From: an uncultured archaeon | GTDB taxonomy: Archaea; Iainarchaeota; Iainarchaeia; Iainarchaeales; Iainarchaeaceae | Direction of reading: 5' to 3' | Assembly: GCA_964373815.1 (NCBI GenBank) | Contig: CAYJWI010000001.1 | Span: forward strand, 7,885-71,884 | DNA length: 64,000 bases | In this document: positions 30,348 to 56,281 of the stretch, in pieces | Position numbering within the stretch: the stretch's first letter is position 1 | Layout: the number at the start of each line of letters is the position of its first letter | Notes under the pieces: generated by a model | Told to the model about the DNA's origin: nothing | Databases searched by the model: none | What the model saw: the letters and a program-made list of their open reading frames with translations, nothing else | Made by a program: the position numbers and the translations under genes

Positions 30348-32735
30348 ATGAAAAAGCAATCCCTCCCAATACTTGCGTTAGCCCTTTTTTTCTCAATAGG
30401 TTTTGCCTACTCCGCGCAGCCTCAAAGCGGGCGAGTTTTGCCAGCAGATGGGCAGGGCGAGCCGGCAGGTGAACAAGGCGGGCCGGCAGATGGGCAAGGC
30501 TTGCCAGAAGGTTTCCCGAATTATGGCCAGGGCCAACCCGGCTCCCCGCCGCTTCCTTACAATGGCGGAAGTGAAGGCGGGTTCGACGGAGGGCCTGGCT
30601 TCAACGGCGGATTTGAAGGCGGCGGCAATGGCGGAATGGGGCCAGGCGGTTTTGATGGAGGGCTCAGGGGGAACTTCGATTTTGGTTTCGGGATTGGGGA
30701 GTCAAGCTTTGCCGACACAAAGCATGCGGGGGAGCAAAAAGTCGTTGAAAACATGACCGCGGTTTATGACTGGATTTCGCTAAACAGCACAAAGTTTGTC
30801 GAGGGGTGCAAGACCGACAGGGTTGCCCTTTCAGCGGAATTGGTCGGCATCATCACGCAGTCGCAGCAAGCCTCCTCCGTTTGCAAAAAGCTCGAACAGG
30901 AAGCCGGCGAGTGCAATGCAGATTCATTCTGCTCAAGGTTCAGCGCAGGCGAGATCCCTTTCCCGCCGGGGGTAAAGTCAGCCCTCAAAAAAGCGGGCAT
31001 TGACACTTCCACCATCACCGTTGATTCTTTCAATGAAGATTTTGCGCTGAAAATGTGCCTCTCCTTCAGCAAGCCTGAAATCGAAAAGCAAAAGCAGAAA
31101 ACCGAGAAGGCGAAGGTGAAGATAAAAGAGCAGCTCCCGTCGTTTAGGGAAAAATGCGCCAAGCTAAAAGAGTTCAGGGAGAAAGGTGAAGAGTATGAAT
31201 TCAGGCTCCCGGATTTCGGGGTACCGCAATCCCAAGGATACGGGCCGCAAGGCCAGGGGCCACCGTGCCAATCTTCACCGCCGAACTGCCCGGGAGGGGC
31301 TAGGTCCTCATGCACCCCCAATGGCTGGGTGTGCGGCCAGCCGGATTATCCACAGCAGCAAAACGATTACAGGCCGGAGCAGCAGTACCAGCGTGAAGGG
31401 ATGCCGCCGAATGATTACAGGCCGCCAGAGCAGCATTATACACAGCCGGCAGAAAACCGTTCAGATTCATCCCAGCCAGCACCAGAGCAAGCTCCAGCCC
31501 CCTCCCCAGAGCCTGCTCCCAGTGCGCCTGCCCCTTCAGGCGATTCAGGGACAGCCCAGACAGCCCACGGCGTAAACGCTAGGGTAAAACCAACAGGATT
31601 TGCAAGTGTTGAAGGGGGGAGCCAGCCACAAGGTTCGCCCGAACCTTCTCCGCAGCAAGGTTACAGAGCAGAGCCATATTCGGGTGGGGCGCCGCCGCAG
31701 GGTTATGGCGGCCAGCCATACCAGGGAGCACCACCACAGGGAGATTATGGCAGGCAGCAGTATCCGGGAGGCTCTGGGTCTCAGGGCTTCGGAAGGGATA
31801 ATGGTTATCCACAACAGCAGGGGTTTGGAGGAAATTTCCCGCAAAATTATGGAAGGCCACCTGAAAACTTCGGGTTCGGAGGTCCGCAAGGCTACGGCCC
31901 GCAAGGCCCACAAGGCCAGCAAGGTTATGGGCCACAAGGCCCGCAGGGTCAGCAGGGCTACGGTCCGCAGGGAGGCCCGGGCTTTGGCTTTGGTGGCCCA
32001 CAAGGGTATGGGGGGCCACAGGGTTATGGCCCACAAGGCCCGCAGGGAGGCCCTGGTGGGGGGCCACATGGAGGTTATGGCGGCGGCCCGGGCTCGCCCG
32101 AACAGCTATGCGAACTTTCAGATGATGAGCTTGTAGAGGAATTCACTTCGCAGTACAGCAATTTCGGCCCCAAAGAGGAAGACCTGGAGAAGATATGCAG
32201 GAAGGAATCCGGAAAAATCGTTGCCGACATGCAGAGGTTCAGGCTCGGGATTGCGGAGTGCAAGGCAAGTGTTGCCGTCCAGTGCGCCTCGAAGCAGGAA
32301 GCCGCAAAGAACTGCGCAAGCATTCAGGACAACCCGGAGGAGATAAGCAGGGTCATGGTGGAAAAGATGTGCAGGCGCTTCGGCGTTCCCGCTGCGGCAA
32401 AGGCTGACAATGAACTCTACAAGGTGGCAAGCAGGTGGTATGATTCAGACCCGGCACTCGCGGACCAGCTCGGCGACACCGCTGACAAGAGCACTGTAGA
32501 CAAGAAGAAGCTTGGCATAATGAGTTACCTGTTCGGTGACGGGGATTACGGCGCAAAGCTCAAGACAAGGGCCGCAGAGCTAAGGACAGTAATAGAGAAA
32601 CTCAAGGCCGCAGGAGTGAATGACGCGGAAACAGTTTCAGTGCTCGAATCGCAGGCGCAGTCATTCGATGCTGAAGGGGCAAAGTTCAGCAACTTCTTCG
32701 ACATCTCAAGGCTGGGCGGCCTGTTCGGCGGATAG
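30348..32735 (+). CDS. secreted protein with G/P/Q/Y-rich low-complexity regions and two Cys-containing helical domains
   Basis: 795-aa ORF with signal peptide MKKQSLPILALALFFSIGFAYSA. Tandem QGYGPQGPQGQ repeats lie at about 31880-32070. Structured Cys-bearing segments flank the repeats. Confidence 0.7.
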   Translation: MKKQSLPILALALFFSIGFAYSAQPQSGRVLPADGQGEPAGEQGGPADGQGLPEGFPNYGQGQPGSPPLPYNGGSEGGFDGGPGFNGGFEGGGNGGMGPGGFDGGLRGNFDFGFGIGESSFADTKHAGEQKVVENMTAVYDWISLNSTKFVEGCKTDRVALSAELVGIITQSQQASSVCKKLEQEAGECNADSFCSRFSAGEIPFPPGVKSALKKAGIDTSTITVDSFNEDFALKMCLSFSKPEIEKQKQKTEKAKVKIKEQLPSFREKCAKLKEFREKGEEYEFRLPDFGVPQSQGYGPQGQGPPCQSSPPNCPGGARSSCTPNGWVCGQPDYPQQQNDYRPEQQYQREGMPPNDYRPPEQHYTQPAENRSDSSQPAPEQAPAPSPEPAPSAPAPSGDSGTAQTAHGVNARVKPTGFASVEGGSQPQGSPEPSPQQGYRAEPYSGGAPPQGYGGQPYQGAPPQGDYGRQQYPGGSGSQGFGRDNGYPQQQGFGGNFPQNYGRPPENFGFGGPQGYGPQGPQGQQGYGPQGPQGQQGYGPQGGPGFGFGGPQGYGGPQGYGPQGPQGGPGGGPHGGYGGGPGSPEQLCELSDDELVEEFTSQYSNFGPKEEDLEKICRKESGKIVADMQRFRLGIAECKASVAVQCASKQEAAKNCASIQDNPEEISRVMVEKMCRRFGVPAAAKADNELYKVASRWYDSDPALADQLGDTADKSTVDKKKLGIMSYLFGDGDYGAKLKTRAAELRTVIEKLKAAGVNDAETVSVLESQAQSFDAEGAKFSNFFDISRLGGLFGG

Positions 32736-35993: not shown

Positions 35994-36671
35994 ATGATTG
36001 AGAGGATAAAAAAGCTCGGCCTCAACGAGTACGAGGCAAGGGCCTACAAGGCGCTGCTCCGGCAAGGCAGGGCTTCCGCCGTTTCGGTGAGCAGGCATGC
36101 CTCGATTCCGCGCGCGAGGGTCTATGACATCCTTTTCTCGCTTGAGAAGAAGGGCTTTGTTGTCAAATCCGCCTCCAAGCCGATTGAGTTTAGCGCGGTT
36201 AAGCCAGTGCACGCTTTCGAGGCGATTTCAAAGGGCAAGAGGGATGAAATGGAGGCCTCCCTCTCTGAACTAAAGGCCACGGCCGAAGCCCTCCAGAAGG
36301 GCATTGGAGAGGGGCAGGGGCCTGCAGATGACGGCGCAGTGCTTCTCTTGGAGGGAAGGCTAGGCATTTACTCATTCCTCGGCCGCCAGCTGGAAAACTG
36401 CACTGAAAGCGTCGTAATTTCCTCCTCGGAGGATGGCATTAGGAGGAAAAAGGAGGCTTTTGAAAAGAAATTCTCCTCGCTTTCAAGGGACGGGGTGAAG
36501 GTTTTTTCGAAGCAGAGCCACGCCTCGCGCTTTGTGGTCCTCGACAAGGAAGCGGTGATGCTGTTTTTGAACAGTGAAAGGGAGCCCGAGGAAACAGCCA
36601 ATGAAAAGGCTATTTTTATCAAAAGCCCGTTTGTCGCCAACTATTTCTACAATTCCGCGATGAAAAAGTAG
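35994..36671 (+). CDS. TrmB-family transcriptional regulator
   Basis: LGLNEYEARAYKALLRQGRASAVSVSRHASIPRARVYDILFSLEKKGFV. Confidence 0.8.
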   Translation: MIERIKKLGLNEYEARAYKALLRQGRASAVSVSRHASIPRARVYDILFSLEKKGFVVKSASKPIEFSAVKPVHAFEAISKGKRDEMEASLSELKATAEALQKGIGEGQGPADDGAVLLLEGRLGIYSFLGRQLENCTESVVISSSEDGIRRKKEAFEKKFSSLSRDGVKVFSKQSHASRFVVLDKEAVMLFLNSEREPEETANEKAIFIKSPFVANYFYNSAMKK

Positions 36672-36800: not shown

Positions 36801-36841
36801 TGGCCTAAAAATAAGCAAGGGGCAAAAAATAATTAGGGGGT

Positions 36842-39800
36842 TTACTGCGTTTTCTTCTTCGCTTTTTTCTTTTCGCTTTTTTCAGCAGTGGCCTCTGTTT
36901 TGCCCTCTTCCTTTCCAACCGCCCTATAAGTCGAGAATGCGATGAGCCCTATCACTAAGAGTATTAGCACTCCGAGAATTGCTGTAGAGAATGAAGCAAG
37001 GCCGAAGAGCCCTGTCCCAACATTGAGGTTTTCAGCGGCTTGCTGCTTGTTCTCGCCCGCGATGTTTTTGAAAGTTACGTTTCTAGTGAATGTCCCTTCA
37101 TTGGTTTCAAGTGATATCGGCACTGTCGCGCTCTCGCCTGCGCCCTGCGGGAGCTTTACTAGCAGCCTTGCCTTTGTGGATTCCTTCGATGCCACGACCC
37201 TCTTCTCTGCCTGCACTATGCCGTTGAAGTCAAGGGCTTTTGCGCTGAGTATTTCAAGTGTCCTGTTGCTGTCATTGAAAATGTTGAAATCAACCTGGAA
37301 TTCGTATGGCATCCCTTCAATTTCCTTTATGCTTATGTCCTGCACCCTTACATCGACTTCCCCCGGCCCGTATGATTCCTGGTTGCCTTTGACGAGCAGC
37401 CTTATTTTTGCGGAAGTCGAGAACCCGTTGTCTGTCTGTGCATTGATTGTTATGAAAGTCGTTGCCGGCAAATCGAACGGAGGTGAGACGAAGAAGTCCA
37501 CTTCCTCCTTTTCCCCGGCTTCAATGTTTATTTTTTTGTCCACTATGTAAACGAAAGGCTTGTCCGCAGTGATGGTGACATCCTGGCTTGCAACTCCCCT
37601 GTTCTCCACGAGCAATGACTGTTTTATTCCCTCGCAGGTGGCTGCATCGAGCTCTGGGTTTGGAAGGAGTATGTCTATTGCAAAGCAGCTCGAGGATGAG
37701 AGGTAGTTGATGTTCTTTTCCTGGGTGAAATCGAGCCTTGCGGATTTCGCCTTCACGCTGAACTTGTTTTCAGCGCTGCCCTTGGGCGCGGTTGCGCTGA
37801 AAGGCACGGCCTTCTCCTCTCCCGCCTCAACAGAGATTGCCCCTGGGCCGCTTACCCATGGAGGGGCATAACTGATTTTGAATTCCTGCCTCTCGGAGCC
37901 TAGGTTGAATACCGTGAAGAGCTCTTTCTTCTCAACTCCCGGGCAGATGTTGAGCTCCGGTACAACGAATGCCGCGCTGTGGCAGTCCGAGACCGTTAGG
38001 GTGAAATCCTTTTCAAACGAAAAGTGCTCTGAAGTAAGTTTGAGCGTGAAAGTCTTGGCCCCTTTTGTTGCCGGCACGATGTCGAGCTCTTGCGAAATCT
38101 GCTTGAGCACATCGATTAGCTGCTGAGAGTTCTGCGCATCGAAGTATTTGCCCTTTGTCCTGTCCGCTATAACCTGGAGCTGTGCCTTGCCTTCCTTGTC
38201 TATGTCAAAGCCTACTGCATAGACCCTTATGCCCTTGGAGGAGAGGTCTTTTGCCGCCTGTGCAGTGTTTCCTGCGCATGTTTCCTTTCCGTCGCTTACA
38301 AGTATTACTGCCTTCTGTTTTGTGCCGGTGAAATCATTTGCCGCTGCCTGCAGCGCCTGTGCGAGCGGTGTCTTTCCCTTCGGCTTGAATGCGGAAACCT
38401 TGTCGGTTATTCCCGCAATGTCAAGCTCTTTTATGGGCACGAGCAGCGAGGAGTCTTCACAGAGCTCTCCCTGCCCGAAAATCCTCAATCCAAGGTCAAC
38501 CTGGCTGATGTTATTTACAAGGTTTATTACAGCGGATTTTGCAGCGTCCATCTTGCCCTGCTTTCCTGATGTTTCAACCATCGAGCCTGAAGCATCTATA
38601 AGAATTTCGATTGCCGTGTCGGTTTTGCTCACTTTCGCTTCCTTTGCGAGCTTGCTCACGTCAATCAAGGCGTTGAGCTGCTCTTCGCTGCCGGGGTTAA
38701 TCGTGAATTTTTTCTTGTCAAGCGCTGCATCGATTCCTGTGATGATTGCCTCGAGCTCCACAGGCTTTTCCCTGTTGTTTTTGAGCGTGAATTTGTAAAC
38801 GGGTTTGTCCTCTACGCACACGCTCGCATCCCCTCCCGTCTTCTCGACTTCGAGGTTGTAGCAGTCCTTTAGCTGGCCTGAAAATGTTTTTGTGATGTCG
38901 TACTTGAATCCCGTGCTTTCGGCCTTTACCTTGAAATCATAATTTCCCCCAGGCTCTCCCGTCTGCGAGAATTTCACCGTAAAGGTGTCCTCGCTTCCGG
39001 CCTTTACCGACAGCTCTGTCCTGTCAAGTTTTGCAAAGTTTGCGCCTTCGAGCGAAATTTTGTATTTCTCGTCAAGCTTTCCGTTGTTTGCAATCCTGAT
39101 TTTCCCCTCGCTCCCTGTTTCGAGGCAGGCTGAATACTTCCCTCCCTCAAACCCGCTTCCGAGGATTATCTGCGTGCCCTGGCCCTGTGAAATGGTGTAC
39201 TGTGCTCCATCTTCCGAAAAAAAGTCCGGGTTTGGAAGCGATGCCTTGACCTTGAAATCATATGTCCCCAAATCCGCATCGCATGGGGCTTTCACTTTGA
39301 GTTTTACGGTTTCAGGTTCGCCCTTTGCGACGATTACCCTAGCGCTTTCGAGTGTGTACCATGCCTTGGGAATGCCTTCGATGCCCAAATCCGCCCTTTC
39401 GGTATTCTGGTTCGGCACTTTTGTGCGGTTCGTGACAACGATGTCGTATGTTTTTTCCTCGCACTGCGTTGCCTCCTGCTTTGATGGCTGCACATCCACG
39501 TCCACGAAGTGCCCCTGGCCAAGCTCTACTGAGCAGGTGGCTGAAACTGTTTTTCCGTTCTGCACCAAGAGCTGCGCTGTATATTTGCCGGGGCTTGCAT
39601 AGCAGTTCGCCACCGCGAAAACCCGCAGGTTTTCACACTCGCCAGCTTCGAGGCTGAACTTGTTCGGTATTACATTGAACCAGGAAGCAGCTGCGCCGTT
39701 GAAATAAGCGTTATAATTTTCGGTTTTCGAGGAATCGTTGCACAGTTCGAGTTCGCTCATTGAAAGCTCGCACTGGATATTGGTCGAATCGCACGAGCCG

Positions 39801-39874
39801 CTAAGCTCCGAGCCGTGTGCGTATGCTCCTAGTATCACGAACGCGATCCCGATTATGATTGCACGTATGTCCAT
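36842..39874 (-). CDS. large surface protein: Ig-like (CARDB/COG1361-like) repeats, central vWA domain, C-terminal anchor
   Basis: 1010-aa ORF with a signal peptide. vWA with MIDAS LIDASGSM...KGKTP...VSDGKE at about 38084-38614. C-terminus GTGLFGLASF, a TM helix and a KKKAKKK tail. Confidence 0.8.
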   Translation of the reverse strand: MDIRAIIIGIAFVILGAYAHGSELSGSCDSTNIQCELSMSELELCNDSSKTENYNAYFNGAAASWFNVIPNKFSLEAGECENLRVFAVANCYASPGKYTAQLLVQNGKTVSATCSVELGQGHFVDVDVQPSKQEATQCEEKTYDIVVTNRTKVPNQNTERADLGIEGIPKAWYTLESARVIVAKGEPETVKLKVKAPCDADLGTYDFKVKASLPNPDFFSEDGAQYTISQGQGTQIILGSGFEGGKYSACLETGSEGKIRIANNGKLDEKYKISLEGANFAKLDRTELSVKAGSEDTFTVKFSQTGEPGGNYDFKVKAESTGFKYDITKTFSGQLKDCYNLEVEKTGGDASVCVEDKPVYKFTLKNNREKPVELEAIITGIDAALDKKKFTINPGSEEQLNALIDVSKLAKEAKVSKTDTAIEILIDASGSMVETSGKQGKMDAAKSAVINLVNNISQVDLGLRIFGQGELCEDSSLLVPIKELDIAGITDKVSAFKPKGKTPLAQALQAAANDFTGTKQKAVILVSDGKETCAGNTAQAAKDLSSKGIRVYAVGFDIDKEGKAQLQVIADRTKGKYFDAQNSQQLIDVLKQISQELDIVPATKGAKTFTLKLTSEHFSFEKDFTLTVSDCHSAAFVVPELNICPGVEKKELFTVFNLGSERQEFKISYAPPWVSGPGAISVEAGEEKAVPFSATAPKGSAENKFSVKAKSARLDFTQEKNINYLSSSSCFAIDILLPNPELDAATCEGIKQSLLVENRGVASQDVTITADKPFVYIVDKKINIEAGEKEEVDFFVSPPFDLPATTFITINAQTDNGFSTSAKIRLLVKGNQESYGPGEVDVRVQDISIKEIEGMPYEFQVDFNIFNDSNRTLEILSAKALDFNGIVQAEKRVVASKESTKARLLVKLPQGAGESATVPISLETNEGTFTRNVTFKNIAGENKQQAAENLNVGTGLFGLASFSTAILGVLILLVIGLIAFSTYRAVGKEEGKTEATAEKSEKKKAKKKTQ

Positions 39875-39893
39875 GTTTTCGCCTATATAGTTC

Positions 39894-42020
39894 CTACTTG
39901 TTACTGTTAAGTAGTGACAATACTATAAATGCTATTACAAGAACAATTAAAATGATAACCCCTGCGGCAAATGCCCCATTGCTTCCGAGCACTGCAAGCC
40001 CTGAAAGCGCGCTTCCGCCCCCCTGCTGGCCTGCTGCCTTGCCCGCAACGGTTATCTTAATTGGCTTGGTTGAGGCATAGCCCTTTGCCCGCACTTCAAG
40101 GGTCGCGTTGAAAACCCTGTCAGAATCGGTTTCAGAGGCGCTCACAAGTCTTGTGAAAGTCCTTGTCTGGTTCGGCCCGATGTTTCCAAGTGAAATAGGC
40201 AGTATTACTGCGCCTTCTTCAGAGCCATAAACCCTCACCCTTACGTCTTCTAGTGCTCCTGCAAGGACGTTCTTTATGGTGAATGAAAGTTCCTTCTCTT
40301 CAGCGGAAGCAAGCCTTACTTCCGAAGGATAGCTAAGTATTTCCACTCCTCCAGCCTGCGCGTTTGTTTCGGCGGCAACTACCCTAAACCTTAGCTCTTC
40401 GCTCTGCTCATCAGAGCCGCTCTTTGCGCTAAGCGTTATTGTATAGTTGCCTAGCTGCGCATCGAATGCCGGGGAGATGAAAACGTAAACCTTCTCTTCC
40501 TTTCCTTTCTTGACGGTTATTTCCTTGTCAGTTAGGGTTGCATTTATCGAAGCGTCGACACCTTTTAGCGAGAGCCTGGCTTTTTCATCGAAAGCCCCGT
40601 TGTTTCTAAGCACTACCTCGAAGACCTGTCCCGCCGTTGCGGAGCATGCCCTTGCCTCGAAATCATTGTTGGCTATGAGCATCTCGAGCTTGTGCTCATC
40701 CCTTATGTCAATTTCCGCTTTCTTGGTTTCGGTTTCCTCCGCGCTGCGGCCGGTTACTTTCACTTCGTGCTTCCCGAACTTTTCAGTATCCTTCGCCTTC
40801 ACGGTGAGTGTTACTTCCTTTGTCCCTTTCCCTGCAAGAAAAACCCTCGAGGAATCTAGCCTTGCCTCAATGTCGCCGTCAACCCCGAGTGTCACGAACT
40901 GGCCCTGCTCTATTTTGCTTTTGAGTATTACGCTAAGTTCCTTCCCCTCCCCCCTCTTCATGGATTTTCTTGCAGGCGTTATCGTGAGGTCGAACTCGTC
41001 CTTTCCGCATTCAATTACCCTTATGCGTATTTCCCTTTCGACGAAGTAATCCTCGCTTCTCGCGAACACGGGTATTGTGTAATCAGTGAAAGCGGTAGTG
41101 TAATTAGTGTTTATCGAGAGGCCCACTTCCTCTTCATCCCCGCTTGCAAGCCTTGTGGCTGGGAATTCGAATACAGGGAGCAATAGCTCGTGGCTAGCCC
41201 CGAGTGAAATCGTCTGGCCCCTTCCTGAATTGTTTTCAAGCCTTATTTTTATTTCCTGCGTATAAGGCTGCCTGCAGATGAAATAACCGTCCAATCTTTC
41301 TATGTTTATCGGCGAGTCGTCATCTATGACTTCGGCCCTGATGTTTTGCCTTATTGCACTGCCCTCGCCGTACAAAAATTTTGCCTGCACATCATAAACG
41401 TCTGTTCTCGCGTCCGGGAAGGCGGTGATTGTCATTGTTACCGAAGTCCTCTCGCCGTTGCCGAGGCAGAAAGAATTCCCCGGCACTTGCGCTTCTATTT
41501 CGTGCCTTTCGCTGTTTCCAATCTGTGCATCCGCGGTAAAGCACTCCCTCTTGCCGCTGTTGTTGCTAACCGAGAGTTGCACGTTTATCGACTGGCCGGT
41601 TTCGAGGAAAACCGAGTTCCTGTCAGAAGAAACTGTTATCGCTTTTGAGGGCTGCGATTCTGAAACATTGATGTTGAACTCGTCGCTGTCGCCAAGCCCT
41701 GCGGGGTTTTGCGCCCTTACTGTAACCGTGCTCATGCCTGCGCTTGCAGGCTCCGGCGCGTTGCAGCTTATGAAATAATTTTCCTGCAGGAAGCAATCCA
41801 CAAGCTGGGTGTCACTTTGCTTTTCAATGCTGAAAAACATTTTATCGGATGAGTATGCGGGGTCGCTTACATAATTCCTCAAATCAGCGAATTTTACAAT
41901 TGGCCCTGAATCCATCCCCACTGAAATGTCCTTAATGCCATCAAAATCCGGTGCCGCGGCCGCAAGTGCAAAGCCCGCGCAGAGCAAAACCACCATGGCG
42001 GACATGATTCCCTTCATCAT
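39894..42020 (-). CDS. surface protein with repeated Ig-like domains and C-terminal anchor
   Basis: 708-aa ORF with a signal peptide. The N-terminal module is shared with 42935..45484. C-terminus GGGSALSGLAVLG plus a TM helix. Confidence 0.75.
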   Translation of the reverse strand: MMKGIMSAMVVLLCAGFALAAAAPDFDGIKDISVGMDSGPIVKFADLRNYVSDPAYSSDKMFFSIEKQSDTQLVDCFLQENYFISCNAPEPASAGMSTVTVRAQNPAGLGDSDEFNINVSESQPSKAITVSSDRNSVFLETGQSINVQLSVSNNSGKRECFTADAQIGNSERHEIEAQVPGNSFCLGNGERTSVTMTITAFPDARTDVYDVQAKFLYGEGSAIRQNIRAEVIDDDSPINIERLDGYFICRQPYTQEIKIRLENNSGRGQTISLGASHELLLPVFEFPATRLASGDEEEVGLSINTNYTTAFTDYTIPVFARSEDYFVEREIRIRVIECGKDEFDLTITPARKSMKRGEGKELSVILKSKIEQGQFVTLGVDGDIEARLDSSRVFLAGKGTKEVTLTVKAKDTEKFGKHEVKVTGRSAEETETKKAEIDIRDEHKLEMLIANNDFEARACSATAGQVFEVVLRNNGAFDEKARLSLKGVDASINATLTDKEITVKKGKEEKVYVFISPAFDAQLGNYTITLSAKSGSDEQSEELRFRVVAAETNAQAGGVEILSYPSEVRLASAEEKELSFTIKNVLAGALEDVRVRVYGSEEGAVILPISLGNIGPNQTRTFTRLVSASETDSDRVFNATLEVRAKGYASTKPIKITVAGKAAGQQGGGSALSGLAVLGSNGAFAAGVIILIVLVIAFIVLSLLNSNK
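39900..39930 (-). promoter_or_regulatory. conserved TATA-plus-initiator-like motif, copy A
   Basis: The minus strand reads ATTTATAGTATTGTCACTACTTAACAGTAAC, 25 nt upstream of the 36842..39874 start codon. It also encodes the last residues IVLSLLNSN of the upstream gene. Confidence 0.4.
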
Positions 42021-42854
42021 TTACTTCGCCCTCCCTTGTTTCTTCCCGGCCGTGAGGATTTTCACCATTCTCGCTATGAATGCTATGAGCAGCACAGCCG
42101 CCACAAGCACGAGCACTGCATCCACCAAAAGTTCGCCACCTGCAATTCCGCCAAGGCCGAATACCGCAAAACCGGTTGAAGCGTCCGCACTGCCATTGCC
42201 TTGCCCGTACTTTATTTTCGCAGGTTCAGAAACCGTCGCCGGATTTGCAACGCCTTTGCATGTGAATTCGAATTCGGCGTCCGCCTCGAAGCCGCTGCCA
42301 GATTTAACTGTAAGTTCATAATCCCTTTTCTCGAAAGCCCCGAGGGAAAATTCCTTCACGCCCTCTATTGCAGCGCCGCTTGGCAGGCCTTTGACTGCAG
42401 AGAGCTGCACGGTTTTGCTTTTGTATGACTTGTTTTCAAGCGAAAGTTTTATGCTGCCGTTTTCCTGCGCCGTTATTCGCGCTTCGAGCGGGCATGAATC
42501 CTCTTCAAAAAAGGTGATGGCGATGTTCTTCTCCGCCCTGTTCCCCCCGAGGTCTATGATTATTGTTCCGGTGTAGGTGTTTCCCTCGAGCCCCTTCTTC
42601 GGGAAAACCTTGACAACCACTTCTCCCTTGTTGCTTTTTGCGGCAACGAATGCCGGCCCCTTCACTACGGAATACTCCGAAGGGAAGTGGAATTCAACTG
42701 AAAGGGGGAGCTTTACGCCCGAAGCGTTATCCACGAAAAATGAGAGTTTGTAGGCCGATTCGCCTACCATTATGCTGTTCTCAAGGCCTGTTACGCCAGC
42801 GCTTGCGCTAGCGCAAAAGAGAAGAATTGCAGCCAAAAACCCCAAAAGCCTCAT
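42021..42854 (-). CDS. surface protein with Ig-like domains and C-terminal anchor
   Basis: Start taken at MRLLGFLAAILLFCASASA. C-terminus ASTGFAVFGLGG, a TM helix and a KKQGRAK tail. Abuts the downstream gene. Confidence 0.7.
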   Translation of the reverse strand: MRLLGFLAAILLFCASASAGVTGLENSIMVGESAYKLSFFVDNASGVKLPLSVEFHFPSEYSVVKGPAFVAAKSNKGEVVVKVFPKKGLEGNTYTGTIIIDLGGNRAEKNIAITFFEEDSCPLEARITAQENGSIKLSLENKSYKSKTVQLSAVKGLPSGAAIEGVKEFSLGAFEKRDYELTVKSGSGFEADAEFEFTCKGVANPATVSEPAKIKYGQGNGSADASTGFAVFGLGGIAGGELLVDAVLVLVAAVLLIAFIARMVKILTAGKKQGRAK

Positions 42855-42934
42855 GTTGTTCACGTGTTCACTAGAAGTTATTATACTACATATGTCCAAA
42901 CCTTTATTTAAATGTTGATATTAACGTTAATTAG

Positions 42935-45484
42935 TTAATTTGCTTTAAGTAGTGAAAGAACGCCTATTACTGCCAATACAACGAGCACAATGCCGCCAAC
43001 AGCCATCCCTACAGTCGATGCAAGGGAGGCAAACCCTGTTGCTCCCGAGCCCTGTGCCTGCGCTTTCTTGGCATCAAATGAAACCGGGATGCTTTTGCTT
43101 CCCGAATCAGCATTAACCCTAAATGTCGCCTCTACCTTCCCTTCGTAATCTTTTGCATCCACCGCAACCTCTACCTTCTCCCCTGTCCGCCAGAGCTGCT
43201 TTTGGAGTGCGCCCACTTTCACGCCCGCGGGCACGCCTATTGCTGTAATCGTTACGTTGGTGAGGTCATCACCGGTGTTCTCAAGCTCTATCTTGCCAGC
43301 CCCGCTAACAGTATCGGGCTTGGCTGAAACCCTCACTTCAGGCGCCCTCTTTTCAGGCTCTGCAGGTGCTGGCTGTGGTTGGGGAGCCGGCTGCGGCGAA
43401 GGCGGCTGTCTTGAGCTATCTTCCACAGTCACGTAGAAATTATCCGAAATGGCCGAAGCCGAGCAGTATCTTCCGTCGCTGAACCTTCCTGCAACTGAAA
43501 CATCAACGCTTCCCCTTGTGCCGGATGAAACACTGCCTGCGCTTATTTCAACGCCGATTGTTTCACCGCTGTTCCTGCCAACGCTTGAGGGCTTGCTTTT
43601 CACCCTTGCAGAGAACTTCGGACTTGCATCCTCCACTTTCACAGAATCAATCGAAAAAGTCCTGTTGGAGCTGTTTTCAATCCTGACATTCTTCGTGGTT
43701 TTGGAATCCTCATTTACGCTCACGTCCGGCGCGCTAAGGGTTATGTCATTGCACGCGGCGCTTCCGGAGCCTGAGCTTGAGCCGTTGTTGTTTATTTCTA
43801 CCCTGAAGCTCTTTGTCACGCTGCCGAGGCTGCATTTCCTGCCATCCGAGAACTCCCCCTTGAGCTTGAGCGTAACAGTCGCTTCGCGGTCCTGCACGGT
43901 GTTGGTGCTCACAAGGTCCATGCTAAGGTCAGATGAGTCGTTCGCGCTTATGCTTGCCGGGGCATCGAAGTTCTCGGCCTTCAAATATGAGCTGTTGTCC
44001 GAAATGCCGGCATCGGTCACCTCAAAGTCCTGGTCAGAGTCATTCCTAACACTAAAGCTCACGTTTTTCGTCTCATCCTCGTCCATGAAAACTGTTGAAG
44101 TGGAAACACTTATGTCCGAGCATGTGCCGTTGCCCTGCCCGCCCACATTCACAGTGAAAGTGTCGGAATCTACCCTGTTGCGCGTGTTTTCAACTTCTAT
44201 TGTAATGGTGCTCTCGCCGGTGCTGTTCCCCCTTGGGCCTTCGCATTCGAAGTACCTGTCGCCCACTATGCGGCAGAATACCAGTGAGGTGTCGCTCTGC
44301 CTTGAAATCCTGAAGTCAAGCTGGTCATCGCTGTCAAAGTCATCCCTCGCGTATGAAAAGAGGTCGATTAGCCTGCTGTTGTAGCCGTCGTTTTCCCTGA
44401 TGTCAATGTCAGGCAAGCCGCTTATTGAAGGGCTGCTGTTTCCAGTGCCCTCGGAGAAAACCCTTACATCGAAAGTGTCAGTCGCGCTGAGCCCGCTTGT
44501 ATCGGTAACCCTTACTGAAATTGAATTCGTCCCTGTCCTGTTGGTGGAAGGCGCGTCGCAGTCAATGAACCTCTGCGAGTCCACAAAGCAGTTCACGAGA
44601 GAGGAATTGCTCTGCGAAGTGACTGCAAAAGAGAGCCTGTTGTCCGCATCTTCGGCATCGCTTGCATAGGCCCAGAGGTCTATCGCATCGTTTCTCGAGC
44701 CCGAATTCTCCCTTGTGTCAAGATCCGGGATTCCGCTCAATACTGGCGCGTTGTTCCCGGGATTTCCGCTCACAGTGGCAACAAAGACATCGGAGGCCGA
44801 TGCCCCATTAGTGTCCATTGCTTGGACAGTGATCGTGTTAGAGCCTGTCTGGTTTTGTGTAGGCGCATTGCAGCTCACGTACCTGTTGTTGTTTATCGTG
44901 CAGCTTATGAGCCCCGGGTTGCTCTGCGAGTTAATCGTGAAAGTGAGCCTGTCATCGGAATCCTCTGCATCTGTTGCGTAAGCCCAGAGGTCGGTTATGT
45001 TTGCCCTAGCATTTGAGTTGATGGCGAACTGCACGTCAGGGACATTGGTTATTGCAGGAGAGGTGTTTGCAGGCGGATTTGGTCTTACGACAGTAATTGA
45101 TGCCCTTCCGCAGCTCTGGCCGAAAAGGGTTGCGTTGCGGTCCATCTGCCAGAGTGCTTCGTAATTGCCGGCGCCTGAAGGCGCCTTTATGGAAAAGCTG
45201 AATGCCTTTGAATCCAGCGGAACAACGGAGCCTGAACCGATTGCCATGCCGCTCGAAGCTGAGCCAAAGGTTGTGCCCTGCAATGAGCGCAGGGTGTACT
45301 TGTTTGTGTCATTCCATGCCTCAGTGCCCGTGTTTTTGAGGGTGACAGAAACATTGTAGTTTTCATCTGCAACGATGAATTGCGGGATGCTTGAGGATAT
45401 GCACTGCGCATCATTGGCGGCGCTTACAAAAACACTGGCCATTACCAAGGCCATTACTGTCAAAAATGCTTTGCCGAAACCCAT
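42935..45484 (-). CDS. large surface protein with three tandem ~105-aa modules and C-terminal anchor
   Basis: 849-aa ORF with a signal peptide. It carries repeated DLWAYA(T/S)DAED(S/A)D(D/N)RL(T/S)F..SQSN modules and a PQPAPQPQPAP linker. C-terminus GSGATGFASLAS plus a TM helix. Confidence 0.75.
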   Translation of the reverse strand: MGFGKAFLTVMALVMASVFVSAANDAQCISSSIPQFIVADENYNVSVTLKNTGTEAWNDTNKYTLRSLQGTTFGSASSGMAIGSGSVVPLDSKAFSFSIKAPSGAGNYEALWQMDRNATLFGQSCGRASITVVRPNPPANTSPAITNVPDVQFAINSNARANITDLWAYATDAEDSDDRLTFTINSQSNPGLISCTINNNRYVSCNAPTQNQTGSNTITVQAMDTNGASASDVFVATVSGNPGNNAPVLSGIPDLDTRENSGSRNDAIDLWAYASDAEDADNRLSFAVTSQSNSSLVNCFVDSQRFIDCDAPSTNRTGTNSISVRVTDTSGLSATDTFDVRVFSEGTGNSSPSISGLPDIDIRENDGYNSRLIDLFSYARDDFDSDDQLDFRISRQSDTSLVFCRIVGDRYFECEGPRGNSTGESTITIEVENTRNRVDSDTFTVNVGGQGNGTCSDISVSTSTVFMDEDETKNVSFSVRNDSDQDFEVTDAGISDNSSYLKAENFDAPASISANDSSDLSMDLVSTNTVQDREATVTLKLKGEFSDGRKCSLGSVTKSFRVEINNNGSSSGSGSAACNDITLSAPDVSVNEDSKTTKNVRIENSSNRTFSIDSVKVEDASPKFSARVKSKPSSVGRNSGETIGVEISAGSVSSGTRGSVDVSVAGRFSDGRYCSASAISDNFYVTVEDSSRQPPSPQPAPQPQPAPAEPEKRAPEVRVSAKPDTVSGAGKIELENTGDDLTNVTITAIGVPAGVKVGALQKQLWRTGEKVEVAVDAKDYEGKVEATFRVNADSGSKSIPVSFDAKKAQAQGSGATGFASLASTVGMAVGGIVLVVLAVIGVLSLLKAN

Positions 45485-45503: not shown

Positions 45504-45539
45504 GTTACTATTAAGTAGTGACAATGAAACTATTTAAAG
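45504..45539 (-). promoter_or_regulatory. conserved TATA-plus-initiator-like motif, copy B (candidate operon promoter)
   Basis: The minus strand reads CTTTAAATAGTTTCATTGTCACTACTTAATAGTAAC, 19 nt upstream of the 42935..45484 start codon. 21 of 22 nt are identical to copy A over GTTACTnTTAAGTAGTGACAAT. Confidence 0.4.
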
Positions 45540-45657
45540 CTATGGTTTTGGGCAGGTTTTACGCCTGTGCTGCAGAAAGCCAACCGCTTAAGCTGTTGGA
45601 TGAATGCAACCAATGGCACAGGCGTGTCTTCCAAACATTCAGGCAATAATTTGAAAG

Positions 45658-45677
45658 CCCACGCCTTTAGGCGTGGG
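45658..45677 (-). terminator. hairpin downstream of the HTH-CBS gene
   Basis: CCCACGCC-TTTA-GGCGTGGG lies 20 nt past the stop codon and is followed on the minus strand by CTTTCAAATTATT. Confidence 0.35.
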
Positions 45678-45696
45678 TCTTTTTACTCATAATACT

Positions 45697-46266
45697 TTAT
45701 TTCTTTTCTATAAGCGCATTCAGCAAGTCCGATTTGGTTATTATCCCAACAACCTTCCCCTTCCTTGCAACCAATACCCCGGGGTTGTTTTCTAGCAATC
45801 CGGAAATCGGCCTGAATGGTGTGTCTTCACGCACGGTCGGCATGGCTTCGGCCATGAACTCGCCTACCTTTAGAACGCTCACTTCCTCCATATCCTTTGC
45901 GCTGTTCATCCTGTCAAGTATCGCCTTTTCGGAAATCGTGCCGAGGTTCCTTCCGTCCTCGATTACCGGCAGCTGGGAGACCGCGTGCTTTTTCATCATC
46001 CTCGCAGCCTCCTTGAGGTTTGCATCCCTGCTTACGCCTATCACTTTTTCTGACATGAAATCCGCGGCCTTTGCCTGCGCCTCATTGTGCAGCGATTCGA
46101 AGAAATCAAAGAGCCTTTTCGCGTTCGAATAGGACGGCACTATCGCCCCCGCCTCAATTTTCGCAATCAATGACTGGCTAACGCCCGTGCGCACAGCCAG
46201 CTCGTTTTGCGTAATGCCGAGCTTTTTCCTCTTGGCCTTTAGTTCGGAGAGTTCTGGGAGCACCAT
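45697..46266 (-). CDS. HTH (XRE-type) plus CBS-pair domain regulator
   Basis: KLGITQNELAVRTGVSQSLIAKIEAG is followed by two CBS motifs. Confidence 0.8.
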   Translation of the reverse strand: MVLPELSELKAKRKKLGITQNELAVRTGVSQSLIAKIEAGAIVPSYSNAKRLFDFFESLHNEAQAKAADFMSEKVIGVSRDANLKEAARMMKKHAVSQLPVIEDGRNLGTISEKAILDRMNSAKDMEEVSVLKVGEFMAEAMPTVREDTPFRPISGLLENNPGVLVARKGKVVGIITKSDLLNALIEKK

Positions 46267-46360: not shown

Positions 46361-47542
46361 ATGGCGAGGAAATATCTTTTCAGTTCGGAATCGGTTACGG
46401 AGGGGCACCCGGACAAGATGATGGACCAGATCGCCGACACGATATTGGACGAGATGATAAAGGGCGACCCAAATTCGAGGGTGGCTGTTGAATGTGCAAC
46501 CAAAACCGGGCTGATACTGGTGTTTGGCGAAGTGACCACCAAAACATACGTCGATATCCAGGCAACCGTGAGGAAAGTCATCAGGGAAATAGGCTACAAC
46601 AACCCATCATACGGCTTTGACTGCGACGCTTGCTCTGTTTTGATTTCACTTTCAGAGCAGAGCCCCGACATAGCCCAAGGTGTGAATGAGGGCTCCGGCC
46701 TTGACAAGGAGCAGGGCGCGGGGGACCAGGGGATGATGTTCGGCTATGCCACAGACGAAACCCCTGAACTGATGCCTCTGCCTATAATGCTCGCGCACAA
46801 GATTACGCAGCGCCTCGCGCAGGCGAGAAAGAGCAAGGAAATAACCTTCCTGCGCCCAGACGGCAAGAGCCAGGTGACGATTGAATATGTTGACGGAAAG
46901 CCCGTGAGGGCCGATACAATCGTCGTGAGCGCGCAGCACGATGACGTGCCGTACGAACAGGTACGCGAAGCGATAATAGAGAAAGTGGTAAAGCCTGTGT
47001 GCGGCAAATGGGTGGATGATAATACAAAATTCTTAATCAATCCCACTGGAAGGTTTGTAATCGGCGGGCCAGTGGGCGATTCAGGGCTTACCGGGAGAAA
47101 AATAATAGTAGACACTTACGGCGGAGTAGGCCATCACGGCGGGGGAGCGTTCTCCGGCAAAGACCCTTCAAAGGTCGACCGCTCTGCCGCATACTTCGCC
47201 CGCTATGTCGCAAAGAACATTGTTGCCGCGGGGCTTGCGCAGAGGTGCGAGATACAGGTCGCATACGCTATTGGGGTTTCGGAGCCTGTTTCAATTTTCG
47301 TGAACACCTATGGCACAGGAGAGCTGCCGGATGAAGCGCTCGAAGCCCTCGTGAAAAAAGTTTTCAACTTCAAGCCAGCGGCGATAATAAAGCACCTCAA
47401 CCTCAAGAGGCCGATTTACCGCAAGACCGCGGCCTACGGCCACTTCGGAAGGGATGATGCGGATTTCACTTGGGAGAAAACCGACATGGCAGAGGAGCTG
47501 AAGAAGGAAGCTTCGGGCTTGCTTGCAAAGGCGAGGAACTAG
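46361..47542 (+). CDS. metK: S-adenosylmethionine synthetase, bacterial/eukaryotic MetK type
   Basis: [30 protein letters not shown] and [19 protein letters not shown]. Confidence 0.9.
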
Positions 47543-53005: not shown

Positions 53006-56000
53006 CTATCTTGCCTCTTTCACTGCTTTTTCAAATTCAGAATCCATTTCCACAATTATTCCTTCAATGCCCTTTTCGGCATCCTTTTCCGCGAGCTCCT
53101 TCATCCTCGCTATCTTCTCGCGCACCTTGAGCGCGGTAACAGCCTTTAGCTGCACCCCGAGTTCGAGCGCATCAACCGCCTTGTCATAGAAGCGCAGTAT
53201 TGCCTTGAGCATCCTGTACTGCTTCTTTAGGGATGAGAAAGCGTCGATGTCGCTGAACGCTGACTGCTGCAGGAAATCCTCCCTTAACATCCTTGTGGCA
53301 TCGAGCACCATCTGCTCCTTTTCAGGGAGCGCATCAGGGCCTACTAGCTGCACGATTTCCTGCAGCTCCGCTTCCTTTTGCAAAAGCGCCATGGCCTTTC
53401 CCCGGTTATCCGCCCAATCGGGTGCAACGAGGTTCGCGTAAGTCGCATCCAGCGAATTCGTGTACAATGAGTATGACTTGAGCCAGTTGATTGCGGGGAA
53501 GTGCCTTCTCTGCGCGAGCTTGGCATCAAGCGCCCAGAACACCTTTGTTACGCGCAAGGTGTTCTGCGACACAGGCTCCGAAACATCCCCTCCGGGAGGC
53601 GAGACCGCCCCGATGACTGAAATCGAGCCGTTCCTTTCCGGTGAGCCCACACAAACAATTCTTCCCGCCCTTTCGTAGAACTCTGCGAGCCTTCTTGCAA
53701 GGTACGGCGGATACCCCTCTTCACCCGGCATCTCCTCAATCCTTCCCGAAATTTCCCTCATCGCTTCCGCCCACCTTGAAGTGGAATCCGCCATGAGCGC
53801 GACATCATAACCCATGTCCCTGTAGTATTCCGCAATCGTTATTCCTGTGTAAATGGACGCTTCCCTTGCAGCGACCGGCATGTTGGAGGTGTTCGCTATA
53901 AGCACGGTCCTCTGCATGAGCGGCTTTTTGGTCTTCGGGTCCACGAGTTCCGGGAATTCCGTCAGCACTTCGGTCATCTCGTTGCCCCGTTCGCCGCATC
54001 CGATGTAGACGATTATCTGCGAATCGCTGAATTTTGCGAGTGACTGCTGTGTCACAGTGTTGTGCAAAAGCATAGGCTGGTTGCCTGAAATAAAATTGTG
54101 TGTTTCTGGCACAGTGAGGTCGTAGACGTACTGTTCGGAATTTATTTCCCTGATTTGTGTTATTTTATCGCAGAATACGTCCTCTAATGACTGTGCAAAC
54201 TCATAGAGCCTTCCTTCAATTCCCAGCTTTTCCACTATTGACTGGAATGTCGTGGAGGTTTGGTTGAGTTGCTTGTAGTATGCGATTGTGGATACTCCCT
54301 TTTTCTGCAGTTCCCACGGTTTGATTCCTTCAAGTATTTCCCTAAATAATTCTGGTGTCATGGGGACAATGTCTTTGGACGTATAATAATGCTTTTTCTC
54401 ATAATATGAATCGATTTTATTTGCCTCTTTTGGAGCAATAAAGATTCTGTAATATGTTCCTTTTGCGGTGTTTTTGACCGCGCAGGTGTGGAGTATTCCC
54501 ATTTTTGTGAGAACATATGAGAGGCCAGTCTGCATTTTATGTGATGCAGAAGTGATTTCCGCATCATTCTCACCGATATGGCCATCGCCCTTGATGTATG
54601 CTTTCAGGAAAGCTTTGCACACTGCGTTCGGTGATGTGAGGAGTTGTTTTGGCACTCTCACGTTTCTGGACTTCTTTATGAATGGGAAGCCCATTGAATT
54701 GAGGAATTTTGCCAAAGAAGCGTGGTTAACGCTCACGGCCCAAACGGTGTTTGCGTAGATTTCTTTTGAATCGAGGTTGAATATTTTTTTCAGGAGGAAA
54801 GAAACCCTTTTCCGAAGCTCCTTGTCATTGTTGTAGAATTCTACCACTTTTTTATCTTTTATGCTTCCTTCAGCCATTAGGAAGCCAAGGAATTCCGCAA
54901 GCTCCTCATCTAGGTATTTTGGGAGGCTGATTGGCTTTGATTGCCTTTGGGCCTTGATTTCGCTGAATTCAATTTCCACCCCACTTAGTGTCATTAGGCT
55001 TTTCAGAAAACTTAGGGTTGGTTTGTTGGTTTCGGAGTAAAATGCTGACATTGTATGCTTTGGAACCCCTAAAAGTATTCCAAGTTCTTTTCTATCCATG
55101 CCCCTTTTACTGCATTCTTGGTCTATTACCGATTTCATCTTTTTTAGGGCTTTGGCATCAGTTATCCTGCAGTCAAAGTCCACGGCCAATTTTTGGGTTT
55201 CCCCACTGAACGGGATTTTTCTTGGAGATATTATATAGTCGCCTTCCCTTAATTCCTGTGAAGGCGTTTCTTCTATCCCAAGCTTCTCGTTTATCCTAAA
55301 TAACTTGTGCACTGGTGTTACTTGCACTTTTCTCCCGCTGCGGGTCTTCACTTCAATCATTTTGTCTGTCTTTCCCCTGTAAAGTGTTGTGGCAAGCGTA
55401 TCGGTTATTTCTTTGCCATTAAATGTATACACTTTTAGAGGCTCTTTTAGATTAATTATTGTTTCATAATTATTTTCTTCAATTGAATTGGCCTTATTAT
55501 CCTCCTCTGCTTGGAATATCTCCTGAATTGGCCTCAGTTCGTCATTTGCCAGCACAATTGTATTGCCGTCTATGCATTTCCCAGAACCAAATGGCCCTGG
55601 TATCGCCGCTGTCCCGCCTTTTGAAATCGGGAAGAACGTGTCAAGTATTCTCTGTCCCGTGATTAGCGGGGTATTTGGCGGGAATTTTTCGGCATAGGGC
55701 CTCGGTTTTCTAACTTCCCATCTCTGGAGCATCTGCACTTCGCGCTTTTCCCTGCCGTCCTTTATCACCGCAATTGTTTCCTCTATTGTGAAACTGCCCT
55801 TGCTTATTTCCATGACTTCCCCGGAAATTCCGTGCGGCACCATTATCTTGTGAAGTATAATGCCAGTTTCCTGGACTTCGCCGAGGATGTCGCCTCCAGC
55901 GACCTTCTCGCCCCTCTTCGCTTTCGGCGTGAATGCCCACTTCTTTTCCCTGCTAAGCGAATTCGCGACAACCCCGCGGGCGATGAAGCTTCCGCTCTTT

Positions 56001-56281
56001 GCCATTATTGCATCAAGCGGCCTTTGTATCCCATCATAAACCGATTCAAGCAATCCGGGCCCCAGTTCAACCGTGAGGGGAAGCCCCGTGTTCTCGACAG
56101 GCTGGCCTGGCTTTAGCCCTGATGTGTCCTCATAGACCTGGATGGTTGCTCTATCGCCATTTAGCTTGATTATTTCGCCGATAAGCTTCTCCTTTCCAAC
56201 CTTTACGACGTCATACATTTTCGCCCCCGCCATTTTCTCCCCAACAACTACGGGTCCGACTATTTTTTGCAATTCTCCCAT
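53006..56281 (-). CDS. atpA: A-type ATP synthase subunit A, intein-containing precursor
   Basis: 1091-aa ORF. The exteins (235 + 350 aa) reconstitute GPFGSGK|[37 protein letters not shown]. Confidence 0.9.
54059..55576 (-). mobile_element. 506-aa intein with LAGLIDADG homing endonuclease domain in the AtpA Walker A loop
   Basis: Begins CIDGNTIVL directly after GPFGSGK. Block B TPVH. LAGLIDADG motifs [14 protein letters not shown] and [13 protein letters not shown]. Ends [23 protein letters not shown], followed by the Thr +1 residue. Confidence 0.85.

Follow-up and report, generated by a model that had tools for sequence, protein, structure and literature searches.

A conserved cluster of predicted Ig-like surface proteins in Iainarchaeota with a lineage-specific VWA/MIDAS insertion

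Introduction

Several described systems place a VWA domain with a metal ion-dependent adhesion site (MIDAS), or a membrane-anchored stalk, on the cell surface. Integrin-type receptors (alpha-I/beta-I VWA) are type I proteins with one C-terminal transmembrane (TM) helix and a short cytoplasmic tail, in which the MIDAS-bearing VWA domain forms a side-branch of a beta-sandwich stalk and the hetero-oligomer is held partly through the TM helices. The VWA pilus tip adhesins of Gram-positive bacteria (RrgA, GBS104, SpaC) carry their VWA/MIDAS domain among immunoglobulin (Ig)-like domains, and their genes adjoin those of other Ig-like subunits with C-terminal hydrophobic segments. Bat proteins are short and N-terminally anchored, and are encoded together with a MoxR ATPase and a DUF58 protein, while SlaA and SlaB of the Sulfolobales are the products of adjacent envelope-protein genes, one of them a TM-anchored stalk. 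DPANN archaea are tiny, mostly uncultured and thought to live attached to other cells; to our knowledge, the molecules that build their envelopes and make these contacts are largely unknown. Here, a cluster of four genes for predicted surface proteins, A to D, is described from a stretch of 64,000 nucleotides (nt), below called the window, from contig CAYJWI010000001.1 of an uncultured archaeon of the Iainarchaeota.

On sequence comparison, genes B, C and D make up the syntenic core of the cluster, and gene A and the VWA domain of D appear as add-ons of some lineages. The interpretation favoured here, to which we give about an even chance, is a conserved envelope scaffold carrying lineage-specific adhesive modules.

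Gene organization and predicted topology

Open reading frame (ORF) calling on the window identified four consecutive minus-strand ORFs filling positions 36842-45484:

42935-45484, minus strand: gene A, 849 amino acids (aa), variable accessory surface protein
42021-42854, minus strand: gene B, 277 aa from the ATG at 42854
39894-42020, minus strand: gene C, 708 aa
36842-39874, minus strand: gene D, 1010 aa

Four co-directional genes of these sizes had already been recognized in the first-pass annotation of the window, which described the products as giant, an overstatement for proteins of 277-1010 aa. Read from its first TTG, the ORF of gene B covers 42021-42899 (292 aa). The ATG at 42854 was preferred because the public gene calls on the identical contig start B there (277 aa) and because a TATA-like box 58 nt upstream of this ATG is overlapped by the TTG start. 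With the ATG, the spacer between A and B is 80 nt, and the 35 nt reported earlier hold for the TTG start only; the other two reported spacers were recovered unchanged, the stop codon of B abutting the start codon of C (TAA ATG) and 19 nt separating C and D. A GGGAGGG sequence resembling a Shine-Dalgarno (SD) site lies about 10 nt upstream of the start of C.

All four proteins have two hydrophobic segments apiece, one N-terminal and one C-terminal, and no more. On sequence grounds this pattern would be the signature of a Sec signal peptide followed by a type I membrane anchor, in agreement with the signal peptide and C-terminal anchor earlier assigned to each protein. Cysteines number 12 in A, 3 in B, 8 in C and 17 in D, and their frequency is consistent with disulfide-bonded extracellular domains. 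The beta-rich modules with cysteines previously proposed for each protein were confirmed by Pfam matches, by AlphaFold2 (AF2) models of B and D and by the cysteine counts. Their likening to CARDB/COG1361 was not, since CARDB was not listed in the Pfam search at E ≤ 1 and related E-set families match instead, FixG_C above the cut-off in C and D and NPCBM_assoc below it. In BLASTP comparisons protein C resembles both A (E 1e-14) and D (E 2e-8). No paralogues of the four proteins were found elsewhere in the 64-kb window, the other large ORFs of which are housekeeping genes. Database annotation of the proteins is limited to 'VWA domain-containing' or 'hypothetical', and the literature on Diapherotrites or DPANN archaea and von Willebrand domains yielded nothing relevant and no paper describing the cluster.

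Synteny and conservation in Iainarchaeota

Homologues of protein D are named Candidatus Diapherotrites or Iainarchaeum. The scan of species-representative contigs used peptide patterns inside the VWA domain, so that only VWA-bearing orthologues could be retrieved by it and the VWA-less ones came from the profile search described below. Within this scope, full-length orthologues were found only in Iainarchaeota, including Ca. Iainarchaeum andersonii and AR10 (CP010424), a complete Iainarchaeota genome of 1.24 Mb. The source was thus correctly taken for a small-genome archaeon, being a member of the Iainarchaeota (Diapherotrites) within DPANN; the window also holds a TrmB regulator, an intron-bearing tRNA and an A-type ATPase.

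Counting the species-representative loci long enough to show the order of genes, most of the 25 have MetK on the opposite strand, a helix-turn-helix (HTH)-CBS gene, A, B, C, D and a convergent TrmB gene. The recurrence of this order across about 25 species indicates that the cluster is not a chance arrangement. Identity to the window proteins across the species loci was 33-59% for D, 26-43% for B, 21-46% (mostly 23-45%) for C and, over partial alignments, 25-47% for A. Protein D is the most conserved component across the phylum, a result that goes against the idea of a fast-evolving adhesin.

Gene D and its VWA/MIDAS domain

Protein D consists of a signal peptide, four beta-sandwiches, the VWA domain, three further beta-sandwiches, an IGTGLFxLA motif with a TM helix, and a Lys-rich cytoplasmic tail. 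The features of the gene referred to below are the following:

38066-38641, minus strand: VWA insertion of D, aa ~412-603
38582-38596, minus strand: MIDAS motif DASGS
38369-38371, minus strand: MIDAS residue T502
38291-38293, minus strand: MIDAS residue D528
36911-37021, minus strand: pre-TM motif (IGTGLFxLA) and TM helix of D, aa 952-988
36845-36910, minus strand: Lys-rich cytoplasmic tail of D, ending …EKSEKKKAKKKTQ

The VWA domain (PF00092) matched with 49 bits against a cut-off of 23.8, over aa 424-591 (nt 38102-38605) and 170 of the 174 profile positions. Its MIDAS residues D427, S429, S431, T502 and D528 are invariant in 23 orthologues, as are 13 of the cysteines of D, and the claim that the last gene embeds a complete VWA domain with a MIDAS therefore stands. 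Two Ig-like matches of the FixG_C type were also found in D (FixG_C 66.6 bits). The 22 full-length orthologues are 42-61% identical to D of the window, and among the VWA-bearing orthologues the VWA columns are the most conserved part of the protein (mean majority-residue frequency 0.71), which indicates that the domain is under purifying selection.

The AF2 model of D, built from a 23-sequence alignment, has a mean predicted local distance difference test score (pLDDT) of 72. It consists of a signal helix, four beta-sandwiches (aa 22-404), an alpha/beta VWA domain (aa 420-596), three beta-sandwiches (aa 605-936), a disordered linker, one long helix (aa 962-987) and the Lys-rich tail. In the VWA residues 420-596, strands and helices alternate in a Rossmann-like manner, with pLDDT mostly 80-90. 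When the PDB was searched with the models of D and B, Foldseek gave generic matches only, for D multi-Ig arrays, with TM-scores of 0.1-0.35 for the two proteins jointly; they included hydin/ASH, CEP192, alpha-2-macroglobulin MG domains and chaperone-usher proteins and provided no lead to a function. Sequence and profile searches of the PDB matched only a BatB-type VWA domain for D, and gave nothing for A, C or the post-VWA half of D.

The VWA domain as an insertion

A profile of the post-VWA half of D was searched against 1.84 billion representative proteins and matched 765 clusters at E ≤ 1e-3 and 414 at E ≤ 1e-10. Among the best 150 clusters at 50% identity, the MIDAS signature was present in 16 and missing in 134. 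The clusters without it have proteins of 680-900 aa, all annotated 'hypothetical', and the submitter labels of the VWA-less homologues, which as labels of metagenome-assembled genomes (MAGs) may be imprecise, are Diapherotrites, Iainarchaeum, Micrarchaeota, Nanoarchaeia and Aenigmarchaeota. The VWA domain had been presented as a hallmark of metal-dependent adhesion; with these figures, and with syntenic D orthologues of 746-868 aa that have none, it is no defining part of the system.

Five VWA-less proteins of DPANN MAGs (P0055, P0059, P0064, P0072, P0083) are homologous to both halves of D (E 1e-65 to 1e-112) and are true homologues of it, differing in that the insertion of about 190 aa is missing and that most are without a separate gene A; all are annotated 'hypothetical protein'. 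The locus of P0055 (831 aa) reads MetK, HTH-CBS, B (268 aa), C (644 aa), P0055, TrmB, and P0055 aligns unbroken to residues 8-411 and 604-1003 of D, so that the VWA domain reads as a clean insertion of about 190 aa between the fourth and fifth sandwich of D. The order B-C-D between HTH-CBS and TrmB is shared by P0055, P0059 and P0072; at P0083 only the B-C-D triad and at P0064 only the C-D pair is present. By locus, triads of adjacent B-, C- and D-like genes, each product with a signal peptide and a C-terminal TM helix, are present in L087, L088, L091 and L092, and a C-D pair is present on a contig labelled Nanoarchaeia. Since the termini of the VWA fold adjoin each other, the stalk would be uninterrupted in the orthologues without it.

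Outside Iainarchaeota, the best matches of the VWA domain itself were secreted bacterial VWA proteins (31-44% identity), which share with it the motifs LDASGSM and VSDGKETC, including a Cys pair. This suggests acquisition of the domain from bacteria, as a lead and not as a phylogeny, the patterns of the contig scan having lain inside the VWA domain.

Gene A, a variable cadherin-like protein

Protein A has a signal peptide, an NBR1-FW-like Ig domain, three cadherin-like/Big_9 modules, more beta-sandwiches, a Pro-rich linker and a C-terminal TM helix, its two hydrophobic segments being aa 1-26 and 817-849:

45113-45370, minus strand: NBR1-FW-like Ig domain at the membrane-distal N-terminus of A (aa 39-124), PF16158 N_BRCA1_IG
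44135-45067, minus strand: three tandem cadherin-like/Big_9 modules of A of about 100 aa each, aa 140-450

The N_BRCA1_IG match has an E value of 9e-8 (33.1 bits against a cut-off of 28), and Big_9 and DEX1 beta-sandwich matches were likewise above their Pfam cut-offs. The modules contain an acidic motif, DLWAYAxDAEDSDD, and a Cys pair, and are 32-33% identical to protein C in BLASTP comparisons (E 1e-13 to 1e-15). N-X-S/T sequons occur at 2.2 per 100 aa in A, compared with 0.32 in the housekeeping proteins of the window.

The orthologues of A vary from 602 to 1344 aa. A hidden Markov model (HMM) of the repeat found three cadherin-like copies in A of the window, one to five in its orthologues and one further copy that opens protein C. 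Gene A is missing in four genomes (L022, L023, L024, L032), in which B follows directly after the HTH-CBS gene. Copy-number variation, the comparison proposed in the first-pass annotation, was thereby found in the first gene of the cluster. In a VWA-less relative (L088, 6723-9821), cadherin-like repeats are fused to the N-terminus of a C-like protein of 1032 aa, which points to module shuffling within the cluster.

Genes B and C and the membrane anchors

In protein B a signal peptide precedes two Ig-like beta-sandwiches, which a linker connects to a TM helix, and the AF2 model of the protein (pLDDT 78.5) shows the two sandwiches and a helix at 240-269. It had no Pfam match, and Foldseek against the PDB returned only generic PapD/ASH-type Ig matches. 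Protein C is composed of a signal peptide, a cadherin-like module (aa 21-122), an Ig-like array of the FixG_C type and a TM helix ending LLNSNK; in a separate comparison its orthologues were 40-45% identical.

42048-42137, minus strand: TM helix of B, aa 240-269

The core of this helix, LLIAFIAR, does not vary among the seven sequences of alignment A3 and hardly does so among 15 orthologues. In B, the mean majority-residue frequency is 0.65 in the TM helix, 0.45 in the ectodomain, which is about 40% identical among orthologues, and 0.47 in the equally hydrophobic signal peptide. The corresponding values for D are 0.70 in the IGTGLFxLA motif with its TM helix, which places this part level with the VWA domain, and 0.63 in the Ig domains. 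The conservation of the B and D helices suggests a membrane complex.

Transcription units

The following candidate regulatory elements were found on the minus strand:

45531-45538, minus strand: TATA-like box TTTAAATA preceding the start codon of A by 54 nt
42905-42912, minus strand: candidate B-C-D promoter, a TATA-like box TTTAAATA between A and B that precedes the ATG of B by 58 nt
42858-42871, minus strand: conserved leader element GTGAACACGTGAAC, immediately before the start codon of B
36807-36830, minus strand: two oligo-T runs just past the D stop codon, candidate archaeal terminator
45657-45678, minus strand: hairpin and T-rich terminator-like site after the HTH-CBS gene

TATA-like boxes precede A in nine of 15 orthologous loci. 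The box upstream of B is in register in all 18 aligned genomes, including the four without gene A, with L015 and L024 deviating from TTTA(A/T)ATA. The region upstream of B (42858-42912 in the window, with 17 further loci among L008-L032) reads aaaCcTTTA(A/T)ATA, then ATATAACA, then the leader element, the consensus of which in the alignment of the 18 upstream regions is GT(T/G)AAc(A/G)AGTGAAc, 3-6 nt before the ATG. In the 18 genomes this region is conserved at the nucleotide level, against an identity of only about 40% between the proteins encoded. The leader element, with its tandem GTGAAC-like unit, could be a ribosome site of the SD type or else the operator of a flanking regulator.

Because box and leader are conserved also where A is missing, B-C-D can be read as a unit with its own promoter and A as an upstream accessory unit. 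The cluster, taken earlier for a single four-gene operon, thus probably comprises two transcription units, A and B-C-D. No terminator was found between A and B, and read-through is possible. A scan for sigma-70 promoters and intrinsic terminators gave counts equal to those of shuffled sequence, the model not being suited to an archaeon.

Neighbouring genes and other features of the window

The neighbours of the cluster are TrmB, HTH-CBS, MetK and an aminotransferase. The two regulators were identified by Pfam and synteny:

45697-46266, minus strand: HTH_3 and CBS regulator, conserved upstream neighbour
35994-36671, plus strand: TrmB-family regulator, conserved convergent downstream neighbour

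MetK (46361-47542, plus strand) has the three S-AdoMet synthetase domains of bacteria and eukaryotes; it is of the bacterial type and syntenic with the cluster across Iainarchaeota.

Elsewhere in the window, the catalytic subunit A of the A-type ATPase (53006-56281, minus strand) is split by an intein (Pfam Intein_splicing, aa 242-741) that carries a homing endonuclease of the LAGLIDADG family, with two LAGLIDADG_3 matches. An Rfam tRNA match of 110 nt at 4298-4407 (minus strand), not called by ARAGORN, is probably an intron-containing archaeal tRNA gene. The ORF at 31-1716 (minus strand) encodes a bacterial-type long RelA/SpoT homologue (HD, RelA_SpoT, TGS and ACT), that at 8725-10299 (minus strand) a three-domain multicopper oxidase and that at 19996-22032 (plus strand) a membrane H+-pyrophosphatase. 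Two ORFs, of 795 aa (30348-32735, plus strand; threshold E ≤ 0.001) and 529 aa (16955-18544, minus strand; threshold E ≤ 0.01), are without a Pfam match.

Discussion

According to the interpretation favoured here, B, C and D would be subunits of a conserved membrane-anchored surface complex in Iainarchaeota and related DPANN archaea. Each subunit would be exported by a Sec-type route and would consist of a disulfide-containing stalk of tandem Ig-like beta-sandwiches with a single C-terminal TM anchor, and the three would be assembled through their TM helices and probably through their ectodomains too. The bacterial-type VWA/MIDAS domain would project sideways from the D stalk, between the fourth and fifth beta-sandwich, and would contact a protein ligand at an acidic residue by way of a divalent cation. 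The separately transcribed and N-glycosylation-rich protein A would present the NBR1-FW-like tip and the variable cadherin-like repeats. Together, the VWA domain and A would most likely mediate metal-dependent binding at the cell surface, for which other cells, a matrix or surface and the S-layer of the cell itself are possible targets. We infer complex formation, surface exposure, metal dependence and adhesion from sequences and predicted structures, with the conservation of the B and D helices as the main argument for a hetero-oligomer; attachment to another cell or a host is pure inference.

Four observations weigh against this interpretation. The TM helix of C is weakly conserved, with a mean majority-residue frequency of 0.51 against 0.48. 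Most relatives of D are without the VWA domain, so that MIDAS-mediated binding cannot be the core function. The whole ectodomain of D is well conserved across the phylum, which would fit a housekeeping structural role better than a host-specific adhesin. Lastly, Ca. Iainarchaeum andersonii is thought to be possibly free-living (PMC6349945), so that a host may not exist.

The alternative that fares best, although rather unlikely, is a purely structural envelope complex, in which the B-C-D stalks would set the spacing of a pseudo-periplasm or tether a TM-less S-layer protein in a SlaB-like manner. The D VWA domain would then bind the cell's own S-layer protein and not a foreign surface. The single-copy, syntenic and phylum-wide conservation of the cluster with D as its most conserved member agrees with such a role, as do the related triads in other DPANN-labelled MAGs, and seven Ig domains would roughly match the height of an archaeal S-layer canopy. 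The experimentally supported S-layer protein of Micrarchaeum has PF05123/TIGR01564-type domains and is without a C-terminal TM helix, and its authors proposed an unidentified TM-anchored partner for it (bioRxiv 10.1101/2021.04.28.441871). However, a survey of S-layer proteins assigns to DPANN phyla in general an M. jannaschii/MSTP-like S-layer, anchored through the protein's own Zincin-like domain (bioRxiv 10.1101/2024.05.28.596244, Fig. S7 legend), and a structural role leaves the variable cadherin-like protein A unexplained. The earlier view that the cluster is not a simple S-layer is supported in part: no canonical S-layer family matches A-D, but the cluster could be an S-layer-associated stalk or anchor.

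A wider proposal, which we regard as doubtful, is that B-C-D represents an undescribed trans-envelope complex conserved in several DPANN lineages, serving as the membrane anchor of the TM-less DPANN S-layer or as a cell-contact machine, with cytoplasmic tails that couple the surface to nucleic acid or a cytoplasmic partner and with an inserted bacterial VWA domain or added cadherin-like subunits in particular lineages.

A related idea, improbable in our estimate, is that of a transmembrane receptor or coupling device, in which the polybasic tail of D would pass a binding event at the ectodomain on to the cytoplasm or to nucleic acid. The tails of the D-like proteins P0041-P0110 are 10-130 aa long, and most of those listed end in a polybasic cluster of the KKKxKKK type 20-80 aa past the TM helix, which seems to exceed what the positive-inside rule requires. 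A D-like protein labelled Aenigmarchaeota (P0093; L090, 4597-7293) has at this place in its cytoplasmic tail, after the TM helix, a helix-hairpin-helix DNA-binding motif of the HHH_5 / NusA-C / RadA-N type instead. Its C-terminal motif, …DIKDILDNI, recurs in P0079, P0081, P0100 and P0102. Two regulator genes also flank the cluster in conserved synteny. Against this, the basic tails may reflect no more than the positive-inside rule or a binding to acidic lipids, the window proteins are without a signalling domain, and the flanking regulators may be unrelated neighbours.

It is disfavoured, and in our judgement highly unlikely, that A-D themselves form a multi-component S-layer lattice. The proteins do have generic S-layer features, namely a signal peptide, Ig-like domains, a C-terminal TM helix, sequons and an acidic composition. 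Yet none of them matched PF05123, PF05124, TIGR01564 or TIGR01567 at E ≤ 1 in Pfam and NCBIfam, four D-like homologues had no match to the S-layer families of NCBIfam, and among the top 50 Foldseek matches no solved S-layer protein appeared for D and only SbsB, weakly and at rank 36, for B. Moreover, the survey lists a different protein, A0A2G9N319 (1039 aa), as the Iainarchaeota S-layer protein (bioRxiv 10.1101/2024.05.28.596244, Table S1), presumably of the M. jannaschii/MSTP-like fold type to judge from its general statements on DPANN. The UniProt accessions and lengths of the D orthologues differ from this entry, and in L019 neither the A nor the D orthologue has a start codon that would give 1039 aa; its identity with an orthologue of A or D was set aside on accessions and lengths, without proof. 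From these sequence comparisons the cluster is most likely not the S-layer lattice itself.

A covalent sortase-type pilus, with D as VWA tip adhesin, B and C as shaft or base and the C-termini cut by an archaeosortase-like enzyme, can be given hardly any weight: a VWA domain among Ig-like domains, clustered with other Ig-like subunits, and C-termini that in all four proteins comprise a G/S-rich segment, a TG(F/L)-type motif, a hydrophobic helix and basic residues would suit it, but the NCBIfam X-CTERM models gave no convincing match when seven C-terminal tails were scanned alone (the best, PEF-CTERM, reached E 0.089 and 13 bits against a cut-off of 23, covering part of the model in the hydrophobic stretch of one orthologue), LPXTG is missing from the C-termini of A-D, and no sortase or archaeosortase is among the conserved-neighbourhood genes. 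The strongly conserved helices without a known sorting signal, and the long, conserved-type tail of D, argue instead for retained anchors with specific membrane contacts.

The finding would be routine if the cluster were no more than a generic adhesin. The analysis turns anonymous 'hypothetical' and 'VWA domain-containing' proteins into a defined three-gene module with two plug-in binding modules, in which B, C and D with their TM helices are the ancestral parts and the VWA domain and protein A the lineage-specific ones. The VWA-bearing and VWA-less lineages offer a natural comparison for the MIDAS ligand, and the module provides targets for antibodies, for assignment in cryo-electron tomography and for multimer modelling. 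What specialists might have expected less is that the B-C-D triad is conserved in lineages labelled DPANN and that the VWA domain is a clean insertion.

Comparison with known systems

The cluster resembles the SlaA/SlaB pair in its adjacent envelope-protein genes with a TM-anchored stalk among the products, but it has no sequence or fold match to these proteins and no coiled-coil stalk, and DPANN archaea have an M. jannaschii-type S-layer family of their own (bioRxiv 10.1101/2024.05.28.596244; 10.1101/2021.04.28.441871). BatA/BatB (PDB 3ibs, 4jdu) provide the solved VWA domain closest to that of D by sequence (E 6e-5); in contrast to the Bat system, MoxR and DUF58 genes are not among the neighbours of the cluster and D is C-terminally anchored.

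With the Gram-positive pili the cluster shares both the setting of the VWA/MIDAS domain and the adjoining Ig-like subunit genes. It differs in having no LPXTG or other known sorting motif, no nearby sortase-like gene, and TM helices that are conserved and probably retained. Pilins of the RrgA/GBS104/SpaC type were absent from the top 50 Foldseek matches of D; CfaB (CFA/I) and a C. perfringens pilus protein matched B weakly. With integrin-type receptors it has in common the type I topology with a short tail, the VWA side-branch on a beta-sandwich stalk and the TM-held hetero-oligomer, the last being only proposed here. The beta-propeller, hybrid, PSI and EGF domains are missing, there is no sequence relation outside the VWA fold, and the VWA domain of the cluster is closest to secreted bacterial VWA proteins. 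By analogy, the working principle would be nearest to that of integrin-type receptors and VWA-tipped Gram-positive pili, membership in either failing on the defining features, and the cluster is rated as a variant within the Ig-like/VWA surface adhesin systems already known.

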